From the IMG/VR virus record IMGVR_UViG_2693429662_000023, positions 1 through 8,042 of that record: a DNA stretch of 8,042 nucleotides; one strand, written 5' to 3'. The notes below the pieces were generated by a model. That model ran no database searches. It had not been told where the DNA came from and saw only the letters and a list, made by a program, of their open reading frames with translations. The DNA comes from a virus. Taxonomy: Duplodnaviria; Heunggongvirae; Uroviricota; Caudoviricetes. This document shows positions 1-8,042 of this stretch, in pieces; position 1 is the stretch's first letter, and every line of letters starts with the position of its first letter. The translations under genes were made by a program, and so were the position numbers.

Positions 1-1242
1 ATGGCGAGAAAAACACACCCATTAACCACAGTGCAGATCAAAGCAGCCAGACCAGCGCAAAAGGAGTACACCCTGCAGGACGGCGGAGGGCTTTTTCTCC
101 TGGTCAAACCGTCTGGATCAAAACTCTGGAGATTTTCCTACTACCGACCATCGGACAAAAAAAGAATATTGCTGAGTTTTGGATCGCTTGAAGATGTTTC
201 CCTGGCTGATGTCAGAAAACGCCGTAGCGAGTACAGGACGTTAATCAGTGCCGGAACTGACCCGCAGGACCACGAGAGGCAAAAAAGAGAGACAGAGGCC
301 CGAAGACAAGGGAACACGTTCGAAAATGTGGCGGCGGCATGGTACCAGGTGAAAATCAGCCAGAATCTGGCCCCCAACACGATTAAAGACATCTGGCGTT
401 CGCTGGATAAATATGTATTCCCGTTCATCGGCAACACGCCAATAGATACCCTCACCGCCCGAAGGTTCGTTGAAGTGCTTACCCCCATCAAGGAGCGCGG
501 CAACCTGGAAACACTCAAGCGGGTTTTACAGCGCGTTAATGAGGTAATGGATTACGCCGCCAACAGTGGGCTGATTGATGCCAATCCGGCTATGAATGTG
601 CGTAAGGCGTTTCCCTCACCTGTAAAAAAACATATGCCAACAATCCGCCCCGAACAGCTGCCGGAGCTTATGCAGGCTTTATCAGTATCGGCAACAGAAC
701 GGCAGACCAGATTACTGATTGAATGGCAGTTACTGACCGTAACCCGTCCCGCCGAAGCGTCATCAACGCGGTGGGATGAAATCAACCTGGACGCGAAGCA
801 ATGGACGATACCTGCCGGACGTATGAAGATGCGCAGGGATCACGTTATCCCGCTTTCCGGTCAGGCTATGGCGGTGCTGGAGGCCATGAAACCAATCAGC
901 CACCACCGCAATTACGTTTTCCCAAGTCTGAAAGACCCACAGCAGCCGATGAACAGCCAGACAGCTAACGCAGCATTGCGGCGTATGGGATTCGCTGGCG
1001 TGCTGGTGTCTCATGGATTACGCGCCATATTCAGCACAGCAGCGAACGAGGAAGGATTCGAGCCGGACGTAATAGAGGCGGCACTTGCCCACGTCGACAC
1101 CAACGAAGTTAGACGGGCATACAACCGGAGCAACTACATAGAAAAACGCATCGTGCTGATGCGCTGGTGGGGCGAATTTGTCGAGGCTGCGGCGACGGGC
1201 GTAACCCTCGCCAGTGGTAAAAGGGGTATCCGAGCCGTGTAG
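1..1242 (+). CDS. int: Tyrosine site-specific integrase (P4-type phage integrase family)
   Basis: 413-aa ORF starting at nt 1 with ATG. C-terminal region carries SHGLRAIF (His-x-x-Arg) and RAYNRSNY (candidate catalytic Tyr) with spacing typical of tyrosine recombinases, plus a basic N-terminal arm-like region. Followed by an AlpA gene, as in P4-like satellites and PICIs. The att site and any tRNA would lie upstream of the window. Confidence 0.9.
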   Translation: MARKTHPLTTVQIKAARPAQKEYTLQDGGGLFLLVKPSGSKLWRFSYYRPSDKKRILLSFGSLEDVSLADVRKRRSEYRTLISAGTDPQDHERQKRETEARRQGNTFENVAAAWYQVKISQNLAPNTIKDIWRSLDKYVFPFIGNTPIDTLTARRFVEVLTPIKERGNLETLKRVLQRVNEVMDYAANSGLIDANPAMNVRKAFPSPVKKHMPTIRPEQLPELMQALSVSATERQTRLLIEWQLLTVTRPAEASSTRWDEINLDAKQWTIPAGRMKMRRDHVIPLSGQAMAVLEAMKPISHHRNYVFPSLKDPQQPMNSQTANAALRRMGFAGVLVSHGLRAIFSTAANEEGFEPDVIEAALAHVDTNEVRRAYNRSNYIEKRIVLMRWWGEFVEAAATGVTLASGKRGIRAV

Positions 1243-1289
1243 CTGTACAGAAAACCAGTAAAAACTACGAAAACCATGTAAAACCGTCG

Positions 1290-1295
1290 TATAAT
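1290..1295 (+). promoter_or_regulatory. Candidate sigma70 -10 hexamer (TATAAT) upstream of small ORF; no good -35
   Basis: Perfect TATAAT at 1290-1295 in the AT-rich int-alpA intergenic region. The -35 region is weak (gaaaac-like). Confidence 0.25.
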
Positions 1296-1319
1296 TGCAT
1301 CAAATTTAACGACAAGGCT

Positions 1320-1571
1320 GTGAAACATGAAACCGTTAAGATGCAAAAAAATATCAGATGCAATTGCGACGGGCTGCAACTGGCCCTGATGGTTCAGCAT
1401 GAATTTTGGTCAACCTACGATCCAGAGGACAGAACGACGGCCCCATCAAAAAAACAGGTAGTAGACTTTCTGGTATCCCGTGGCGCTTCCAGAAATCTGG
1501 CGGTAAGTATTGATAAGGTCGTACGTCCGGCATCTATGAAGATCGGAGGCAGGCCCAAAAAATGGCGGTAA
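1320..1571 (+). CDS. Hypothetical small protein (83 aa from GTG 1320; alternative starts ATG 1341 or ATG 1399)
   Basis: ORF ends at TAA 1569-1571, 10 nt before a strong intrinsic terminator. Basic C-terminus (KIGGRPKKWR) resembles an AT-hook. No convincing Shine-Dalgarno for any of the starts, so a non-coding transcript is also possible. Confidence 0.3.
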   Translation: MKHETVKMQKNIRCNCDGLQLALMVQHEFWSTYDPEDRTTAPSKKQVVDFLVSRGASRNLAVSIDKVVRPASMKIGGRPKKWR

Positions 1572-1581
1572 CAATCCTAGA

Positions 1582-1605
1582 AGCGGCAGAAATGCCGCTT
1601 TTTTT
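1582..1605 (+). terminator. Rho-independent terminator
   Basis: Stem AGCGGCA (1582-1588), loop GAAA, stem TGCCGCT (1593-1599), then T-run 1599-1605. Confidence 0.7.
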
Positions 1606-1720
1606 ATAATTCCATTTCAAATCATCAATATAAAAAACGGTGTATACCGTTTAAAAACGGTGGGAACTGTTTTTACCCATATCCGATGATTTACCGTATT
1701 TGTCACCGGAATACACCGGA
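1605..1720 (+). promoter_or_regulatory. alpA upstream control region with -10 like hexamer and operator-like repeats
   Basis: TATAAT at 1605-1610. Direct repeat AAAAACGGTG at 1633-1642 and 1653-1662. Near-palindrome CGGTGTATACCG at 1638-1649. Direct repeat CACCGGA at 1704-1710 and 1714-1720, which is an inverted relative of the GGTGTAT motif. Confidence 0.4.
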
Positions 1721-1738
1721 TTCACAAGGTAAATCACG

Positions 1739-1945
1739 ATGGAAGCAATCAGAAAAATTATCTTTCGCCAGGAAGTAAAAAAAATTATCCACATCAAGGC
1801 AGACAGCACGCTGCAAAGCATGATCAACGCCGGAGAATTTCCGCAAGGTTTTCGCGTTGGTTTACGCCGTCGCGGATGGTATGAGGATGATGTGTTGGCC
1901 TGGCAGAAAGAACGCGAACAGGAAGCACGCGGAACGGCTGCTTAA
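1739..1945 (+). CDS. alpA: AlpA-family transcriptional regulator (prophage CP4-57-type, excisionase-like HTH)
   Basis: 68-aa ORF with SD-like AAGGT 9 nt upstream. Sequence IIFRQEVKKIIHIKADSTLQSMINAGEFPQGFRVGLRRRGWYEDDVLAWQ matches the AlpA pattern (LR..EV...S.ST.Y.LI..G.FP.P..LG.R.VGW...EV..W). Its position directly after a P4-type integrase is typical. Confidence 0.85.
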   Translation: MEAIRKIIFRQEVKKIIHIKADSTLQSMINAGEFPQGFRVGLRRRGWYEDDVLAWQKEREQEARGTAA

Positions 1946-1971
1946 CGGGTATCACAGATATGACAAACACG

Positions 1972-2004
1972 AAAAAAGCGGCCCCGATATGGAGCCGCCT
2001 TTCT
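1972..2004. terminator. Candidate bidirectional terminator hairpin
   Basis: Stem GCGGC (1978-1982) pairs with GCCGC (1994-1998). It is flanked by A6 (1972-1977), which reads as T6 on the minus strand, and by CTTTCT (1999-2004) on the plus strand. Stronger as a terminator for the minus-strand transcript. Confidence 0.4.
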
Positions 2005-2093
2005 GAACAATTAACCCGCTGCGCCTTATGTGTATGTGATCCCAAACATAAGCACGGGGATGATAGCCGCTATCAGGCTGGTGGGCAATGCAA

Positions 2094-2270
2094 TCAGTCT
2101 GGTTCAGTTCGTTGCCATAACTGCGAAGCTCTCTCCTTTGATGAGTATTCTTTAAGGTACTTCTCAAGGGCAAAAGAACACGGCGCGAATCGTTCTGATT
2201 CATGCTCTTTCTTTCTGCGTCGTCTTTTTCGTGCAGGTGATGTTTTTTTGGTTGATTCTTCGTTGGTCAT
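2094..2270 (-). CDS. Hypothetical small basic protein (58 aa), in-frame continuation downstream of the RHH gene
   Basis: Minus-strand ATG at 2270 to TGA at 2096-2094, just under the 60-aa cutoff of the ORF track. Translation by hand: MTNEESTKKTSPARKRRRRKKEHESERFAPCSFALEKYLKEYSSKERASQLWQRTEPD. It is in the same frame as the RHH gene, separated by one TAA and 57 nt of open frame. SD is weak (AGG). Confidence 0.3.
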   Translation of the reverse strand: MTNEESTKKTSPARKRRRRKKEHESERFAPCSFALEKYLKEYSSKERASQLWQRTEPD

Positions 2271-2327
2271 TGTGTGCGCCTGTAAAGCAATGCGCCGTAG
2301 TACCTCACACCACGGCGCTGGTGATGG

Positions 2328-2507
2328 TTACTCCTGCTCTTTGGCCTTGCGGCGCTGGCGGCGTTTGATTTCGCCTTTAACGGCAGTAACTATAAATTGC
2401 GCTTTGCTTTCACCTTCATCTAAATTTTTTTCTAAGTCTGCAACAACATCATGCGGGAATCTGGCATTTAACTGTTGCGACTTATTATTTGTTGAACCTG
2501 TTGCCAT
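2328..2507 (-). CDS. Ribbon-helix-helix (Arc/CopG-like) DNA-binding protein, 59 aa
   Basis: Start chosen at ATG 2507 with GAGGA 7 nt upstream (minus strand). Product MATGSTNNKSQQLNARFPHDVVADLEKNLDEGESKAQFIVTAVKGEIKRRQRRKAKEQE has a beta-strand/helix/helix pattern typical of RHH repressors and antitoxins, then a basic tail. The 114-aa ORF in the track is an unsupported 5' extension. Confidence 0.6.
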   Translation of the reverse strand: MATGSTNNKSQQLNARFPHDVVADLEKNLDEGESKAQFIVTAVKGEIKRRQRRKAKEQE

Positions 2508-2528
2508 TACTGAATCCTCTCTAAGTTG

Positions 2529-2661
2529 GTGCGATTCAGTATACACAAAAAAATTCAGAGAAAAAGGCTTGAAGTGCGATTCACTTGCTGATAGGTTAAA
2601 AACAGATGGTGCGATGCACCAAATAACAACGCCCCGCAGTGCGGGAACACATACGGGGCGT
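2529..2661. promoter_or_regulatory. Divergent control region with three GTGCGAT(T/G)CA repeats and nested palindromes
   Basis: GTGCGATTCA at 2529-2538 and 2574-2583, GTGCGATGCA at 2609-2618. Two copies are palindromic: AAGTGcgatTCACTT (2572-2586) and GGTGCgatGCACC (2608-2620). Palindrome CCCGCAgTGCGGG at 2633-2645 is nested within ACGCCCCG/CGGGGCGT arms (2629-2661). Confidence 0.4.
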
Positions 2662-2690
2662 CTAACCAACAACGTAAACTAGGAGCCGTT

Positions 2691-2888
2691 ATGGTTGCCG
2701 TAAATCATATACCACACCTTGTACACACACAAACGGCCTTTGTGTGGCGTTTTCTGGCCCTGAGTGCCGGAGAATCTCAAATCATCCACGTAACCGCCTG
2801 GACGGAACGCGAAGCGCGTAGCCGTTGCCCGTCCGGTTGTGTTGCTGTATTCGCCGCCCGTATTCGTCAGGGGGGGGGCCATGCCTGA
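2691..2888 (+). CDS. Hypothetical protein (65 aa), possibly the N-terminal part of a frameshift-split gene
   Basis: ATG 2691 preceded by AGGAG (2681-2685) with a 5-nt spacer. Ends ...RIRQGGGHA at TGA 2886-2888, immediately after a G9 tract, and overlaps the next start (ATGCCTGA). Confidence 0.4.
   Translation: MVAVNHIPHLVHTQTAFVWRFLALSAGESQIIHVTAWTEREARSRCPSGCVAVFAARIRQGGGHA
2870..2878. repeat. G9 homopolymer tract at an ORF junction
   Basis: Nine consecutive G at 2870-2878, read directly from the sequence, in the context CAGGGGGGGGGCC. Confidence 0.95.
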
Positions 2889-3201
2889 TATGTCAAATTA
2901 CCAGTACCTGATTAATCCGCATTTTAACTGTGAGCATGATATTGCTAAAAAGGTTTATTCCGCTGCGGATGGGGCTACTGACAATATATCAATGGCTGTT
3001 GCGTCAATTGGTAGCCTGATGTGGCATGCGTCAGAAAATGAGGACTATGACGAAAAGGCCATGCGCATTGATATGGGTAATATTGGTTTGTTACTGGCAA
3101 TGCTTGGACATTTTGATATTTCGTTACGGTGCACCATTGAAAATGCCACAGATGCATTAAATGCTATAAAGAAAGCGAATACTGATTCAAATCGGGGATA
3201 A
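2881..3201 (+). CDS. Hypothetical acidic protein (106 aa)
   Basis: ATG 2881 directly after the G9 tract (alternative ATG 2890). Product MPDMSNYQYLINPHFNCEHD... has no motif I recognise. Sits in an operon-like arrangement with the flanking ORFs. Confidence 0.5.
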   Translation: MPDMSNYQYLINPHFNCEHDIAKKVYSAADGATDNISMAVASIGSLMWHASENEDYDEKAMRIDMGNIGLLLAMLGHFDISLRCTIENATDALNAIKKANTDSNRG

Positions 3202-3207
3202 ATAATC

Positions 3208-3507
3208 ATGAGAACATATTTATCTGGCTTGACTGCCAGCGGTTATGCACACCCCCAAATTATCCCCGGCGCTATTTATCTGGATAAGAACGGTAACAGA
3301 GTAACGGTAAAAGAACTGATGTTTGACCGTGTGTATTTTATTCGTGATGGCTATTCATTTCATAGTTCGCTGAACGTGGAGATCTTTATTAGCAGATTCA
3401 GGCGGGAAATCCCGCTTTCCAGAAAAAACCATGTGTCACGTGTGAATGTGGATAAAAAACTACAGGAACTGAAAAACATGATTGCCGCGTGGAGAGAGCA
3501 GAAATGA
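3208..3507 (+). CDS. Hypothetical basic protein (99 aa)
   Basis: ATG 3208 with GGGGA 9 nt upstream. Stop TGA 3505-3507 overlaps the primase ATG 3504 (ATGA overlap), suggesting translational coupling. Confidence 0.55.
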   Translation: MRTYLSGLTASGYAHPQIIPGAIYLDKNGNRVTVKELMFDRVYFIRDGYSFHSSLNVEIFISRFRREIPLSRKNHVSRVNVDKKLQELKNMIAAWREQK

Positions 3508-5321
3508 AAAAAGCGCCAAATTTAAAACACCAGCCGCGTGACAAAATGACGGAAGTCATCATTTTTGCGGGTAGTGATGCGTGGGCACATGCGAAGCAGT
3601 GGCAGGAACAGGACGGGCGACTGGCTGGCGATAACGTGCCTCCTGTCTGGCTTGGAGAGCAACAACTTGCCGAACTGGACAACCTGCAAATCGTACCGGA
3701 CGGACGCTATCGCGTGCGTCTCTATCAGGCGGGGTTATTGCGTCCGGGGCTTGTTAATACCATCGGGCAGAAACTGGCAGCGGCAGGTGTCAGGGATGCT
3801 GATTATTACTCTGAAGGAATGCACAGCCAGAAACGGGAGAACTGGCGCGAATATCTGGAACGTGAACGGGCAGAGCTGGCGGAAAAGAAAAAGGTAGTTG
3901 AACTGCCTGTAAAGAAAAAAGAGCGGGTAAAAGACGATAACGCTTCATCACTGGCGCTTAACCAGATGGGAGCAAGTCAACGCGGCGAAGTTCTCCTGGC
4001 ACATTATGGCGGTGAACTGGCGATTCATGCTGACTCTGACACTGTTCACCATTACAACGGCGTTGTATGGGAGCCAGTACAGGATAAAGAATTACAGCGA
4101 GCTATGGCACAGATTTTCATTGATGCGGAGATCAGCTATTCGCAGAACGCCATTAAATCGGCGGTCGATACCATGAAGTTAAGTTTGCCTGTAATGGGGA
4201 ATACAGCCCGTAACCTGATTGGATTCAGTAACGGGGTATTTGATACCAGAACAGGTAATTTTCGGGAGCATAACAAAAACGACTGGTTGTTAATTGCCAG
4301 TGAATTACCTTTCAGCCCACCAGCAGAGGGGGAAACGCTGGCAACACATGCGCCGAATTTCTGGAAGTGGTTACGCCGTTCGGTGGCTGAGAATGACCGC
4401 AAGGCGGATCGCGTACTGGCTGCATTATTCATGGTGCTGGCGAACCGGTACGACTGGCAGTTATTCATTGAGGTAACAGGTCCAGGGGGAAGTGGTAAAA
4501 GCGTGATGGCGGAGATTTGCACCATGCTGGCGGGTAAGGCCAACACAGTATCGGCAAGCATGAAGGCGCTGGAAGATGCAAGGGAACGCGCGTTAGTGGT
4601 TGGCTTTTCGCTGATTATCATGCCGGATATGACCCGCTACGCTGGTGATGGGGCAGGAATTAAGGCCATTACAGGCGGTGACAAGGTGGCAATTGATCCG
4701 AAACACAAAGCCCCCTACTCAACGCGTATTCCGGCAGTAGTGCTGGCGGTTAACAATAACGCCATGTCATTCAGTGACCGCAGCGGGGGGATCTCACGTC
4801 GTCGGGTGATATTCAATTTTTCGGAAGTTGTACCGGAGAACGAACGCGATCCAATGCTGGCGGAAAAAATAGAAGGTGAGCTGGCGGTAGTGATTCGCCA
4901 TCTGCTTACACGGTTTGCTGACCAGGACGAAGCCAGACGCCTGTTATATGAGCAGCAGAAATCTGAAGAAGCACTGGCGATAAAGCGAGAGGGGGATTCG
5001 CTGGTGGACTTCTGCGGCTATCTCATGGCGTCGGTAATGTGTGATGGCCTGTTAGTGGGTAATGCTGAAATTGTGCCATTCAGCCCACGCAGGTATCTCT
5101 ATCATGCCTATCTGGCTTATATGAGGGCACATGGGTTTGGTAAACCTGTAACACTGACGCGCTTCGGTAAAGATATGCCGGGGGCAATGGCGGAATATGG
5201 CAGGGAGTATATGAAACGGAAAACGAAGCACGGTTTGCGTTCAAACGTGACACTGACGGAGGAATCAGAAGACTGGATGCCATCATGTGTATCGGTCACT
5301 AATGACGATAGCAAAAATTAA
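3504..5321 (+). CDS. Replication protein: D5_N/primase-C-terminal-like domain fused to SF3 helicase (P4 alpha-like pri-rep)
   Basis: Start ATG 3504 with GGAGAG 7 nt upstream (the track's GTG 3489 is an alternative). Walker A motif GPGGSGKS encoded near 4480-4503. Upstream segment ...GFSNGVFDTRTGNFREH... resembles the D5_N region of P4-family primase/helicases. An iteron origin lies immediately downstream. Confidence 0.9.
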   Translation: MKKAPNLKHQPRDKMTEVIIFAGSDAWAHAKQWQEQDGRLAGDNVPPVWLGEQQLAELDNLQIVPDGRYRVRLYQAGLLRPGLVNTIGQKLAAAGVRDADYYSEGMHSQKRENWREYLERERAELAEKKKVVELPVKKKERVKDDNASSLALNQMGASQRGEVLLAHYGGELAIHADSDTVHHYNGVVWEPVQDKELQRAMAQIFIDAEISYSQNAIKSAVDTMKLSLPVMGNTARNLIGFSNGVFDTRTGNFREHNKNDWLLIASELPFSPPAEGETLATHAPNFWKWLRRSVAENDRKADRVLAALFMVLANRYDWQLFIEVTGPGGSGKSVMAEICTMLAGKANTVSASMKALEDARERALVVGFSLIIMPDMTRYAGDGAGIKAITGGDKVAIDPKHKAPYSTRIPAVVLAVNNNAMSFSDRSGGISRRRVIFNFSEVVPENERDPMLAEKIEGELAVVIRHLLTRFADQDEARRLLYEQQKSEEALAIKREGDSLVDFCGYLMASVMCDGLLVGNAEIVPFSPRRYLYHAYLAYMRAHGFGKPVTLTRFGKDMPGAMAEYGREYMKRKTKHGLRSNVTLTEESEDWMPSCVSVTNDDSKN

Positions 5322-5334
5322 ACTTATGGAATAA

Positions 5335-5563
5335 CTGTTCACCACTGTTCACCCTGTTATAAATATCTTTTATATCAGTATATTATAGGGTGAACAGTTA
5401 TTTATGAACTGTTCACCAAACTATTCACTGTTCACCTTTTTGATTGTTTATTGAGCTTCAAGGGTGAACAGTGGTGAACAGTTGGTGAATAGTTTTTGTG
5501 AAACTGTTCACCCCTTAACATTATGAATTAAAAGATAAAATATCAAAAGGTGAACAGGTGAAG
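5335..5563. repeat. Iteron-type replication origin
   Basis: Nine perfect copies of CTGTTCACC or its complement GGTGAACAG: 5335-5343, 5345-5353, 5389-5397, 5409-5417, 5428-5436, 5463-5471, 5473-5481, 5504-5512, 5549-5557. Degenerate copies include CTGTTAT (5354-5360), CTATTCAC (5421-5428) and GGTGAATAG (5484-5492). AT-rich spacers at 5358-5388 and 5515-5548 could be unwinding elements. Confidence 0.8.
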
Positions 5564-5654
5564 GGTTAAAACGCAAAAATTTTAATTTACTGCTGTGAGA
5601 TAAAGCCTATGACAGCGAAGCACATAAAAAAAATCACAATCGCACGCCCTTGAT

Positions 5655-5849
5655 TTGACGGAACACTGGTTAAGGGTGTCGATAAAAATCATCGACCGCA
5701 ACGCCGGGGAAGGATATGCGAAAGCACATCCCGAACTGATTAGCGCATTCATGACCACGACGGCGGCAAACTTTGCCACGCTGACAGAACGGGAGATTGC
5801 CGAAGCGGAACAGGTAACAACCATCAACGTTAAAAGCGCTGGAGAATAA
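5655..5849 (+). CDS. Hypothetical small ORF (64 aa from TTG; internal ATG at 5751) or non-coding transcript
   Basis: ORF ends TAA 5847-5849, 19 nt before a strong terminator. No usable SD for any in-frame start, so coding status is doubtful. Confidence 0.25.
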   Translation: MTEHWLRVSIKIIDRNAGEGYAKAHPELISAFMTTTAANFATLTEREIAEAEQVTTINVKSAGE

Positions 5850-5867
5850 CCGAAGTAGTGAACACAT

Positions 5868-5891
5868 AGCCGGAGCAATCCGGCTTTTTTT
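5868..5891 (+). terminator. Rho-independent terminator
   Basis: Stem AGCCGGA (5868-5874), loop GCAA, stem TCCGGCT (5879-5885), then T7 run 5885-5891. Confidence 0.7.
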
Positions 5892-5925
5892 CGATCTCGC
5901 ATATCTTAAAAAATGGTTGATTGAT

Positions 5926-5931
5926 TATAAT
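5926..5931 (+). promoter_or_regulatory. Candidate -10 hexamer (TATAAT) for the downstream two-gene operon
   Basis: Perfect TATAAT at 5926-5931 within TTGATTGATTATAAT, about 50 nt upstream of GTG 5980. The -35 is weak. Confidence 0.3.
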
Positions 5932-5979
5932 CTATCGAAAATACTGATTATTAGATGATAAGCATCAGGAGGAAACAAA

Positions 5980-6174
5980 GTGGAACAGATAAAGCAAAGC
6001 GCTACCGTGATGATTGATCACGAGATCCTAAACGAGCTTAAAAAACTTCAATTCGATGTTATTCGCCGGATGAATGAAGCTGGTATATACGGCAGAGCCG
6101 CCACGCCAACAGTAGGCCATCTTGCTCGCGTGCTGTTACGCGAACGCCTGGGCATTGCAACAGGTGAGGAATAA
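5980..6174 (+). CDS. Small putative DNA-binding protein (64 aa; RHH-like or HTH-like)
   Basis: GTG start with AGGAGG (5966-5971) 8 nt upstream. Product MEQIKQSATVMIDHEILNELKKLQFDVIRRMNEAGIYGRAATPTVGHLARVLLRERLGIATGEE has a strand-helix-helix pattern. The fold assignment is tentative. Confidence 0.55.
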   Translation: MEQIKQSATVMIDHEILNELKKLQFDVIRRMNEAGIYGRAATPTVGHLARVLLRERLGIATGEE

Positions 6175-6176
6175 CA

Positions 6177-6338
6177 ATGGCTATCACAGAACGCGAGGCA
6201 AGCATCATTAAAGCCATTGGCGAGGAAACAAGAGACACGATAGCGCCATTAATGGAAAAGATCGCAGAGCTTGAGAGACGAATAAACAAGCTGAGTGATG
6301 AAGTTGAAGGCCTGATCTCGTTACTCGGTGAGCAATGA
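6177..6338 (+). CDS. Small charged coiled-coil protein (53 aa)
   Basis: Not in the ORF track because it is under 60 aa. ATG 6177 sits 2 nt after the upstream stop, with GAGGA (6166-6170) 6 nt upstream. Translated by hand: MAITEREASIIKAIGEETRDTIAPLMEKIAELERRINKLSDEVEGLISLLGEQ, with a heptad-like hydrophobic pattern. Confidence 0.5.
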   Translation: MAITEREASIIKAIGEETRDTIAPLMEKIAELERRINKLSDEVEGLISLLGEQ

Positions 6339-6400
6339 CAGGGGGGGGGAGTGTTCCGGCCGGAAAGTCGATCGCCCTGGACACCGCCCCCCGTCTCATT
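6339..6400. promoter_or_regulatory. GC-rich palindromic element containing a second G9 tract
   Basis: G9 at 6341-6349 in the same CAGGGGGGGGG context as the tract at 2870. Perfect palindrome TTCCGGCCGGAA at 6354-6365 and CGATCG at 6369-6374. Arm GGGGGGGAGTGT is near-complementary to ACACCGCCCCCC (6381-6392). No T-run follows, so it is not a canonical intrinsic terminator. Confidence 0.4.
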
Positions 6401-6422
6401 CGTAGAAAATTTTGCTTTTCAA

Positions 6423-6445
6423 AAAAGTTACACGAAAAGTTACAC
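6423..6445 (+). repeat. Tandem direct repeat AAAAGTTACAC x2 (12-bp period) upstream of terS
   Basis: AAAAGTTACAC at 6423-6433 and 6435-6445, about 25 nt upstream of the terS ATG. Confidence 0.6.
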
Positions 6446-6467
6446 CCCCTCAAAACGAGGTTTTTGC

Positions 6468-6956
6468 ATGGCATTAACGACCAAAAAAAAGCGGTTTGCT
6501 GATGCGTTATCAAGGGGCGCAAATCCCACGGAAGCCGCTATACATGCGGGATACAGCGAAAAGACCGCAAGGGTCAAAGGCTGGCAGCTATCCAACGATC
6601 CTGAGGTGAAAAAGTATCTTAAGGCTGTAACTCCTGATGTAACTTTTCAGGTTACAAAACCGAAAAAAGTTACAAAGAAAGTTACCGAAAAAGTTACACC
6701 GGAACGGGCATCAATTAACACCATTGAGATGATGGATAACGGCCTACCCGACCCCATCAAAGCAATGGGCAGGATACTGATTGACAACATGGACACAGAT
6801 CCAAAACTGGCTTTAGATGCCGCGTTTAAGCTGGCCCAGTTCACCCACCGCAAGATCGGCAGCATTGGGAAAAAAGAGGTTAAAAAACTCAATGCCGCTA
6901 GTGTCTACTCAAATCGGTTCCCCATCCCTAAGCCACCAACAGACTTAAAACACTGA
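6468..6956 (+). CDS. terS: Terminase small subunit (P27/Terminase_2-like, N-terminal HTH)
   Basis: Start ATG 6468 chosen over the track's GTG 6351, which would translate the GC-rich palindrome. N-terminus MALTTKKKRFADALSRGANPTEAAIHAGYSEKTARVKGWQL matches the TerS HTH pattern (K.KRF...Y...N.T.AA..AGYS.KTA). Contains a KVTKKVTEKVT repeat insert. Confidence 0.75.
   Translation: MALTTKKKRFADALSRGANPTEAAIHAGYSEKTARVKGWQLSNDPEVKKYLKAVTPDVTFQVTKPKKVTKKVTEKVTPERASINTIEMMDNGLPDPIKAMGRILIDNMDTDPKLALDAAFKLAQFTHRKIGSIGKKEVKKLNAASVYSNRFPIPKPPTDLKH
6627..6697. repeat. 12-bp periodic GTAAC/GTTAC repeat array inside terS (candidate pac or TerS-binding site)
   Basis: GTAAC at 6627 and 6639. GTTAC at 6651, 6669, 6681 and 6693, with spacings of 12, 12, 18, 12 and 12 bp. 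Same core as the upstream AAAAGTTACAC repeats. Confidence 0.5.
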
Positions 6957-6967
6957 GGTAGCGAACT

Positions 6968-7129
6968 ATGAGCGAATACATCACAGACCCTATTGATGTA
7001 CTCACGGAAATCATGAACGACAAGCAGCAGTCGACCGAAATACGGTTACAGGCCGCCGCTGTTCTGATGCCATATTTTCACGAAACACTAAACCCGTGCT
7101 TCCAGGAGGAGGAAGAAGATGATCTGTAA
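6968..7129 (+). CDS. Small protein (53 aa) resembling the C-terminal segment of TerS, with acidic tail
   Basis: ATG 6968 with GAGG 9 nt upstream. Translated by hand: MSEYITDPIDVLTEIMNDKQQSTEIRLQAAAVLMPYFHETLNPCFQEEEEDDL. Aligns by eye with TerS residues DPIKAMGRILIDNMDTDPKLALDAAFKLAQFTH (shared DPI...I..D.......AA.....F.H). Overlaps the capsid gene start by 11 nt. Confidence 0.45.
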   Translation: MSEYITDPIDVLTEIMNDKQQSTEIRLQAAAVLMPYFHETLNPCFQEEEEDDL

Positions 7130-8042
7130 AAACATGAAAGGCGTGTCAGCAGTTCGCGCCGCCAGCGTGCTGGCATCGTGTAAATTTAGCCATGCTGACG
7201 CTATAGAGATGACGAAAAGAAATGATCCGGCAGTATCGTTATTTCTTGAAAAATCCGTAGTAGCAGGAATGAACACGGATAACATGCCGTCGCTGGTGGC
7301 AGAGCCGATAGTAAGAGAGCTTGGCGAGTATATTTTTTCGCAGTCTGTACCAGGCAAGCTAATCAGCAGCGCGCTAAATCTTCCTTTTGGCGCAAAATTG
7401 CAGTCAATATCAGGCAAGGGCAGTAAATGGCTTAAAGAAGCCGAAGAAATCCCTGTCAAAGAGGGAGAAGTAAACGAAAGTGCGCTAAAACTGTGCAAAC
7501 TTGGCGCTATTGTGATGCTGAATAACGAGCTAATCAAATTTAGCACCCCTGGTACAAATTCAGCGATCAGAGACTTGATCACATCGGAATCGGTGAAAGA
7601 AATAGATAAAAAATTTCTTTCCAGTGACCAGGAGGTGGCTGGCGTATCCCCTGAGGGCGTGCTTAATGGTGCTGATGAGGCCGAAAACTTCATAGAGCTT
7701 TTCAAAAAGCACATAGCGAACGGTAACACGCTTTCCACGTCGTCGCTAATCTTGCCCGTAGAAAACGCCTTACAGCTTACTGATGCTGAGTTCTGGCAGA
7801 TAGAGCTTTTGAGAATACCGGTAATTGTGAGCGAACAGGCGGATCGCATGATGCTGATAGACGCTCAAAAGCTGATTATTAACGTTGAAGCCACGGTTAT
7901 AACCCCAACTGATGAGGCGGTAATAAAAACCGAATCAGGGGCGGTTAGCCTTTTCCAGAATGACGCTACAGCGTTCAGGGCAATCACCTATTGCGGATGG
8001 CAAAAACTCGATAAGGCCGTCACCGTTCTGGCGAAAAGCTGA
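7119..8042 (+). CDS. Major capsid protein, HK97 fold (Phage_capsid family), 307 aa
   Basis: ATG 7119 preceded by AGGAGGAGGAAG. Internal motif EIDKKFLSSDQEVAGVSPEGVLNGA and C-terminal LFQNDATAFRAITYCGWQKLDKAVTVL match hallmark HK97-family capsid motifs (..ID.aFl.GdG...P.GlLN.. and ..F..D.tAfRa..R.......AfvvL). Stop TGA at 8040-8042 coincides with the window end. Confidence 0.7.
   Translation: MICKNMKGVSAVRAASVLASCKFSHADAIEMTKRNDPAVSLFLEKSVVAGMNTDNMPSLVAEPIVRELGEYIFSQSVPGKLISSALNLPFGAKLQSISGKGSKWLKEAEEIPVKEGEVNESALKLCKLGAIVMLNNELIKFSTPGTNSAIRDLITSESVKEIDKKFLSSDQEVAGVSPEGVLNGADEAENFIELFKKHIANGNTLSTSSLILPVENALQLTDAEFWQIELLRIPVIVSEQADRMMLIDAQKLIINVEATVITPTDEAVIKTESGAVSLFQNDATAFRAITYCGWQKLDKAVTVLAKS

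Follow-up and report, generated by a model that had tools for sequence, protein, structure and literature searches.

Induction of phage satellites of the kind considered here is described as AlpA-dependent, and the Gram-negative phage-inducible chromosomal islands (PICIs) as well as the capsid-forming PICIs (cf-PICIs) are described as controlled by AlpA. In phage P4, the kil gene corresponds to the 3' portion of eta, an open reading frame (ORF) of greater length (PMC10111431, citing Forti et al. 1999). Here we describe the control region, an interval of about 0.7 kb between alpA and icd, of an element that appears to be a cf-PICI/P4-like satellite at tRNA-Pro. The window, that is the whole stretch of DNA analysed, comprises 8,042 nt (positions 1 to 8,042 of IMG/VR record IMGVR_UViG_2693429662_000023, Caudoviricetes). 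In the papers on cf-PICIs and on EcCIMP1 this region is not described, and a search of the satellite papers for a repressor found none named for it. The locus shows what looks like an immunity-type module built around a ribbon-helix-helix (RHH) gene, with at least 13 alleles, most of which come with repeats of their own.

Direct translation of the minus strand gives a 59-aa ORF (MATGSTNNK...KAKEQE) closed by TAA, after which the frame stays open for 19 sense codons (57 nt; PSPAPWCEVLRRIALQAHT) up to an ATG that starts a 58-codon ORF in the same frame (Table 1). The plus strand is spanned by an ORF of 240 codons. The initial annotation of this stretch had seen in the layout an RHH regulator that is interrupted by a nonsense codon, read through or internally duplicated, or else a two-part antitoxin-like module. 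Its coordinates, the in-frame relation, the 19-codon gap and the plus-strand ORF are all reproduced by our translation; the finding as first stated, a split gene or readthrough, does not reflect the actual biology and needs no further pursuit. With a probability of about 0.8, the two ORFs are distinct genes within the control cassette of a phage satellite, the RHH gene being the regulator. The two minus-strand genes would be co-transcribed, the first encoding a complete RHH protein of the YlcI/YnfO family and the second an independent protein of 58 aa, and a hairpin in the spacer between them together with a strong terminator past the second gene supports such an operon.

For comparison we used 94 related modules from complete E. 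coli genomes, one Shigella genome and 80 IMG/VR contigs; among 5,426 complete E. coli genomes, about 1,700 contain DNA that matches the locus. A sense codon at 2328-2330, for which the initial annotation had proposed to search among relatives, does not occur in this set: the position is TAA, TGA or TAG in 94 of 94 loci, and 11 loci carry a second in-frame stop within the spacer (GAG TAA CTA type; TAG in L013; TAA TAA in L075). The spacer itself is exactly 57 nt long in all 94 modules and occurs in 20 sequence variants. The RHH gene and the small ORF share a frame because this length is constant (19 x 3) and not because of readthrough; a spacer of fixed length has a one-in-three chance of being a multiple of three. 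The layout is also statistically unremarkable: the window has 54 open segments that reach 59 codons or more, and 5 of these are followed in frame by an open segment of 77 codons or more. The two products are unrelated by BLASTP (E=85) and by profile-profile comparison (hhalign probability 0.06%), and the structural model of the downstream product has no strand-helix-helix. The repeat of the RHH strand-plus-helix-A motif, the repeated basic KRR-rich segment and the internal duplication that had been read into the sequence are thus not borne out.

The upstream gene is complete by itself. Its product matches NCBIfam NF041551 (YlcI_YnfO_N) over residues 9-50 with 63.3 bits (cut-off 30; E=1.5e-17) as well as phrog_949, PGAP annotates it as WP_000190566.1, and the gene carries a strong Shine-Dalgarno (SD) sequence. 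A homologue search yielded 134 clusters across Enterobacterales; the 120 of these that are listed encode proteins of 53-103 aa, nearly all of 59-62 aa and a few of about 102-103 aa, and none is fused to downstream sequence. The AlphaFold2 (AF2) model of the window protein (predicted local distance difference test score, pLDDT, 74) has an extended N-terminus followed by two helices, and with an N-terminal strand, two helices and a G-x-S/T turn ahead of helix B the protein belongs to the RHH fold class, which it has in common with Arc/Mnt of P22 immI, CopG, TacA and CopA_SO; its best structural matches include the RHH antitoxins TacA1, CopA_SO and Rv0298. The family includes the YlcI/YnfO proteins of the K-12 prophages DLP12 and Qin; the window protein falls within the size range, about 59-62 aa, of the 134 homologue clusters, and a literature search on YlcI/YnfO function yielded nothing functional. 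In contrast to that family, the gene described here lies in a satellite control region beside allele-specific operator-like repeats, which points to a role as repressor.

Across the relatives, the RHH slot is mosaic: at least 13 alleles occur, namely five YlcI-type (59 aa), five long (101-106 aa) and three Arc/Mnt-like ones. The YlcI set and the Arc-like set align as RHH proteins, although distantly (hhalign E=3.6e-4), and among PDB entries the Arc-like set matches Mnt best (E=0.042); the sequence similarity between Arc/Mnt and the RHH protein of the window is weak, and DNA binding by the latter is putative. Nevertheless, Arc/Mnt-like alleles occupy the exact position of the YlcI-type allele in related satellites, likewise with repeated or palindromic candidate operators at the promoter. 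All alleles stop at one common boundary, which is followed by the 57-nt spacer and the small ORF. In relatives from other genera, a Klebsiella/Salmonella-type element (L096), Proteus (L098/L099) and Pectobacterium (L100/L101), the RHH gene stands without a homologue of the small ORF downstream, and in L096 a terminator-like sequence lies 3' of it. Orthologues of this kind, ending at the common stop ahead of non-coding DNA, are the outcome that the initial annotation itself had named as refuting its reading. As observations beside this pattern, one module (L011, 1180-2560) carries the entire cassette of hairpin/leader, operators, RHH gene, 57-nt spacer and small ORF as a tandem duplicate with differing RHH alleles, and two others (L036, L068), possibly decaying elements, have lost most of the RHH gene by deletion.

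The allele in the slot correlates with the DNA in front of it. Allele-specific repeats of 9-12 nt lie upstream of the RHH gene at about -30, -75 and -100 from the start codon in 11 of the 13 allele types. In the window, GAATCGCAC stands at -75 and -30 from the RHH ATG; a repeat of the form ATCGCACCA stands at -108 and -28, and the relatives carry GAAACACAC in L003, GTCAGCCAC three times in L002 and GGTGTTAAACAC in L012, while the repeats of the Arc-like allele Arc-1 are GGTAATTACC palindromes. The -30 copy lies directly 3' of a conserved TATACT, and TGTGTATACT is conserved in several allele types, with the 9-mer immediately downstream of it varying by allele. On the plus strand, TTGAC/TTGAA abutting the -75 copy is conserved in most YlcI-type and long alleles, and TTGAC in most alleles. 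Such co-variation of repeats and alleles is what characterizes immunity-type modules, whose repressor is swapped together with its operators. In this respect the locus resembles the mosaic immunity regions of lambdoid phages, and it shares with them the conserved boundaries of the module, which here consist of the spacer with the small ORF at one end and of the hairpin with the icd leader at the other. It differs from them in that the putative repressor is an RHH and not a helix-turn-helix protein, and in that the element is a satellite.

Based on these comparisons of sequence, we propose that the RHH protein is an immunity-type, allele-specific repressor of the cf-PICI/P4-like satellite. It would bind the 9-11-bp repeats, with O1 located past its own -10 element, O2 beside the plus-strand -35-like TTGAC/TTGAA and O3 further upstream, and binding would result in autoregulation as well as in repression of the divergent promoter from which icd and the primase operon are expressed early. 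The -35-like site adjoining O2 is a candidate for this early icd promoter under RHH control. Autoregulation and repression of a divergent promoter are both suggested by where the repeats lie.

The 58-codon ORF looks like a real, under-annotated gene. It matches phrog_21027 (E=5.4e-13), and its homologues form 24 clusters of 57-70 aa, all from E. coli or Shigella, with an invariant ESERFAPC core. Since third codon positions are shared with the plus-strand ORF, codon-position variability cannot separate the strands, and we used the ratio of nonsynonymous to synonymous substitution rates (dN/dS) and synonymous resampling instead. For six divergent variants (Nei-Gojobori, 15 pairs), dN/dS is 0.14-0.48 in the sense frame and 0.27-0.55 in the antisense frame whose third positions coincide with it; the sense value is the lower one in 13 of the 15 pairs. 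Pooled pN/pS is 0.45 for the sense frame, the lowest of all six, 0.59 for this antisense frame and 0.78-1.11 for the frames not sharing third positions. Every indel has a length divisible by three, the start codon ATG is conserved throughout, and a CGA/AGA change at an Arg codon is synonymous in the sense frame only. In the AF2 model, residues 1-23 form a disordered basic tail and residues 24-55 a helix (pLDDT 70-87).

This family is narrow. Pfam gives a chance match to ARPP-2 only (13 bits), NCBIfam and PADLOC give nothing, a Foldseek comparison of the model with the PDB gives no match, and neither does a search of the phage collection; a scan of species-representative genomes finds a single locus, in Shigella flexneri, and a hidden Markov model search of 1.84 billion representative proteins returns 10 matches, two of which resemble repeat-protein artefacts. 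The ORF is called a hypothetical protein by PGAP in L010, L011 and L014, and PGAP usually skips it, so that a small conserved protein has been missed by an annotation pipeline in many genomes. Behind the same spacer, L011 has a divergent variant of 75 aa with an acidic, Q-rich N-terminus, an MTN start and a FALE-type helix motif. Five homologue clusters (P0018-P0020, P0023, P0024) are frameshifted after about residue 42 and retain the basic tail and ESERFAPC; the C-terminus appears to be under weak constraint. The protein, with its own ATG, a weak SD sequence, a basic disordered tail and one amphipathic helix, would act as an independent gene product, irrespective of the RHH allele that precedes it; it would be co-transcribed with the RHH gene and, in the quiescent island, be made from the repressor mRNA in smaller amounts. 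Our guess that it serves as a small nucleic-acid- or partner-binding accessory factor is a tentative one.

The plus strand of the same DNA reveals a second layer. The initial annotation had taken the 240-codon ORF as a shadow of minus-strand coding, and it is correct that third codon positions are shared; the frame is, however, also open over a total of about 146 codons where the minus strand encodes nothing. In the window it has no stop in 240 codons, compared with 13 and 21 stops in the other plus frames, and among 80 unique related loci, where it is 209-479 codons long, it has none in 26,587 codons, compared with 1449 and 1786. It remains open over the minus-strand 3' untranslated region (UTR), the terminator, the spacer and the operator region as well. 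Within 150 nt of allele-specific operator DNA, it is free of stops in 11 of 13 allele types, whereas about 8% of codons in the other frames are stops. Since shared third positions lower the chance of a stop only in coding DNA, the shadow explanation is only partly adequate. Synonymous resampling of the RHH alleles gives a stop-free plus frame with a probability of 0.17-0.8 per allele, and all alleles are stop-free.

The ends of this ORF are likewise informative. Among 28 distinct start contexts, 11 place its first ATG 8-19 nt past the alpA stop, several of them with a G-rich motif that resembles an SD sequence; in the window the distance is 14 nt. In about 45 of the 80 unique loci it is fused in frame to icd, and in most of the others it terminates 8-25 nt short of the icd start codon; Proteus and the Klebsiella/Salmonella-type element have fused ORFs of 269 and 246 codons, respectively. 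In Proteus mirabilis (L098, 2140-2946), the gene caller reports a 268-aa ORF antisense to YlcI that begins at the stop codon of an AntA-family gene and extends as far as the icd 3' end, so that this long-ORF layout also exists outside Escherichia. By comparison with L096, a frameshift in L097 (about 2422), possibly a decaying element, cuts the long ORF 110 nt before icd. The peptide is Cys/Ser-rich and changes completely with each RHH allele, and it has no Pfam or NCBIfam match outside the icd part and no motif that is conserved independently. We considered that it might encode a zinc ribbon (CxxC-x27-CxxC; weak Lar match, E=0.54) and rejected this, as the first CxxC is absent in many variants. 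The lack of a family match and of a conserved motif suggests that selection acts on openness and not on protein sequence. On this evidence, the ORF appears to be kept open by selection, in which case every incoming RHH/operator allele would have to be free of stops in the opposite frame. PGAP treats the locus inconsistently (L002-L009 and the window), annotating the minus-strand RHH gene, a plus-strand 'hypothetical protein' of 247 aa (WP_001304194.1), an 'Icd-like protein' of 380 aa or pseudogenes that overlap the RHH gene on the plus strand.

In this context, comparison with the eta/kil region of P4 and the c4-icd-ant region of P1 is instructive. As in those systems, a small structured RNA is predicted nearby; the long ORF here starts just past an alpA homologue, and its end falls within a small icd-like gene or shortly upstream of it, ahead of the replication operon. 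There is no detectable homology of the plus-strand ORF to Eta (Phage_ASH), so that the likeness to P4 would be functional, and in the window the ORF stops 8 nt short of the icd ATG and is consequently not nested. The P4 control region is not known to contain a protein repressor cassette antisense inside its long ORF, unlike the locus described here; of interest is the organisation, with a swappable repressor/operator cassette lying antisense within a plus-strand ORF, apparently selected to be open, that links alpA to icd. We regard it as evenly balanced whether the alpA-icd interval is indeed used on both strands in the following way: a swappable RHH cassette and a cis-antisense RNA would lie inside a plus-strand ORF that is selected for uninterrupted translation regardless of its sequence, and ribosomes coming from alpA would shield the transcript from Rho and perhaps strip off the antisense RNA, thereby switching on icd and the replication operon. 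The evolutionary signature of such protective translation would be the stop-free frame. If the ORF is translated to counteract termination as in P4, the locus would provide a clear example from nature of a frame that is selected to stay open although its protein is not selected, in DNA whose opposite strand codes for real proteins.

The candidate antisense RNA is complementary to the SD sequence and ATG of icd. An extended -10-like motif, TGGTAT(A)(A/T)(G/A)AT, is conserved on the minus strand within the 5' end of icd, and the hairpin at the end of the RNA is flagged by the terminator scan. RNAalifold on nine variants predicts two stem-loops, in which 7 of 24 pairs keep pairing despite changes on both sides. 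An Rfam scan of the whole window (E<=1) gave no match, neither to C4 nor to isrK nor to any other known RNA family. By analogy with c4-icd of P1, the RNA may block translation of icd. The icd-like gene itself finds one induced-prophage record only in the phage collection, and P4 kil went undetected in this search.

Several other explanations for the two minus-strand ORFs have to be considered. That they form one RHH regulator of 137 aa, split by a nonsense codon or joined by readthrough of TAA, is very improbable. The common frame with its 19 intervening sense codons recurs in every relative, as such a gene would lead one to expect, but it follows trivially from the invariant 57-nt spacer. The codon in question is never a sense codon in the 94 loci, 11 of which would need to bypass a further stop (two adjacent TAA codons in L075), and no fused homologue exists among the listed clusters. 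Besides, RHH alleles of two sequence types end at the common boundary, and the orthologues of the Klebsiella/Salmonella-type element, Proteus and Pectobacterium share this stop boundary and have no downstream ORF. TAA is also the most efficient stop codon of E. coli, which counts against readthrough. A type II toxin-antitoxin pair, in which the 58-aa basic protein is the toxin of an RHH antitoxin, is improbable too, even though an RHH gene followed by a small basic protein in one operon, the resemblance of the RHH model to TacA1, CopA_SO and Rv0298 and the duplication of the cassette as a unit in L011 are what such a pair would show. Searches of Pfam, NCBIfam and PADLOC connect the small ORF with no family of toxins or defence proteins, a search of the PDB finds no matching fold, its model consists of a disordered tail and a single helix, and the 59-aa RHH protein has no obvious additional toxin-binding domain. 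The genes are 57 nt apart with a hairpin in between and are not translationally coupled. Almost the same small ORF is present behind each of at least 13 RHH alleles, which fall into two sequence types and differ in their C-termini, and RHH orthologues stand alone in other genera; one small ORF behind so many differing alleles, and an RHH gene often without it, makes cognate pairing unlikely. The two-part antitoxin-like module of the initial annotation is disfavoured on the same grounds.

It is further unlikely that the 58-codon ORF is untranslated and owes its conservation to the plus-strand ORF, to an RNA element or to the 3' UTR of the RHH mRNA. The missing PGAP call in the source genome, the weak SD sequence, the very narrow family, the variants with frameshifted C-termini and the constraint on the plus frame above it would all fit this view. 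Against it stand the sense-frame dN/dS, which falls below that of the plus frame in most pairs, the Arg change that is silent in the sense frame only, the indels in multiples of three, the conserved ATG, the MTN- and FALE-type motifs kept in the 75-aa variant of L011, and the existence of a PHROG family, while the plus-frame peptide has no independently conserved motif. Hardly credible is the reverse, namely that the plus-strand ORF is the sole real gene and the RHH gene and small ORF are its shadows. The frame is open in all relatives and sometimes annotated by PGAP (WP_001304194.1, 380-aa 'Icd-like'), but the RHH gene belongs to a curated family across Enterobacterales, distantly related alleles fill one and the same slot, it has a strong SD sequence, a terminator lies 3' of the operon, and the Cys/Ser-rich plus-strand peptide matches no family and is replaced completely with each RHH allele.

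Some observations weigh against two separate minus-strand genes in a control cassette, the reading that we prefer. Both genes are predictions from sequence, and a simple sigma-70 scan missed the putative RHH promoter. The SD sequence of the small ORF is weak (AGG/AGGA, 7-8 nt upstream), its family is tiny, with frameshifted C-terminal tails in 5 of 24 clusters, and its dN/dS is not fully separable from the constraint on the plus frame because third positions are common to both. The spacer hairpin shows no compensatory double changes, and its role remains putative. Within this reading, the boundaries of the genes, the ever-present stop, the correlation of alleles with operators, the coding signal and the class of fold are results of the analysis; repression, the placement of the promoters, attenuation and the role of the 58-aa protein are inferred.

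Table 1. Features of the alpA-icd control region in the window (strand: +, plus; -, minus;., not assigned to one strand).
Feature	Position	Strand	Remarks
Intrinsic terminator of the minus-strand operon, 14-pair stem then TTTTTT	1972..2004	-	terminator scan; conserved in L003
ORF of 240 codons antisense to the whole cassette, third codon positions shared	1960..2682	+	proposed eta-like translated leader from alpA to icd; stop 2680-2682
Small protein gene, 58 aa	2094..2270	-	basic disordered N-terminus SPARKRRRRKK, invariant ESERFAPC, one long predicted helix; unannotated in source genome
Intergenic spacer, 57 nt, with hairpin GCGCCGTGG-N9-CTACGGCGC (2318..2292) and tail ATTGCTTTAC	2271..2327	-	non-coding
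RHH gene of the YlcI/YnfO family, 59 aa	2328..2507	-	stop TAA 2330..2328; proposed allele-specific repressor
Candidate -10 of the RHH operon, TATACT (2543..2538), then operator repeat O1 GAATCGCAC (2537..2529)	2529..2543	-	putative promoter
Operator repeat O2 GTGAATCGCAC (minus strand, 2584..2574) adjoining plus-strand -35-like TTGAAG (2569-2574)	2569..2584	.	putative promoter
Third operator-like copy, O3, GCATCGCAC inside palindrome TGGTGCATCGCACCA	2607..2621	.	also a small hairpin in the terminator scan
Candidate cis-antisense small RNA, about 77 nt, promoter TGGTATATGAT (2714..2704)	2622..2714	-	ends at hairpin 2650..2629 and T-run
icd-like gene, 65 aa, first of the replication operon	2691..2888	+	NCBIfam NF033153, E=5.8e-18; PGAP WP_001453500.1

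The spacer that follows the RHH stop would be untranslated. Its hairpin is flagged by the terminator scan (12 pairs), the RNA folds with -28 kcal/mol (z=-2.4), and variants in the stem pair via G-U on the minus strand only. The hairpin may be a weak or leaky terminator, an attenuator or a conserved module boundary; in the mechanism that we favour, it probably attenuates transcription into the second gene or marks the boundary of the module. At the other end of the operon, a sigma-70-like sequence (TTGCCC-17-TATCAT, 2060-2088, minus strand) lies just 3' of the small-ORF stop, and the region of about 100 nt after the small ORF, into the terminator at 1972, looks conserved by eye between the window and L003. 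The region 2088-1972 could thus give rise to a small RNA, either 3'-UTR-derived or independent.

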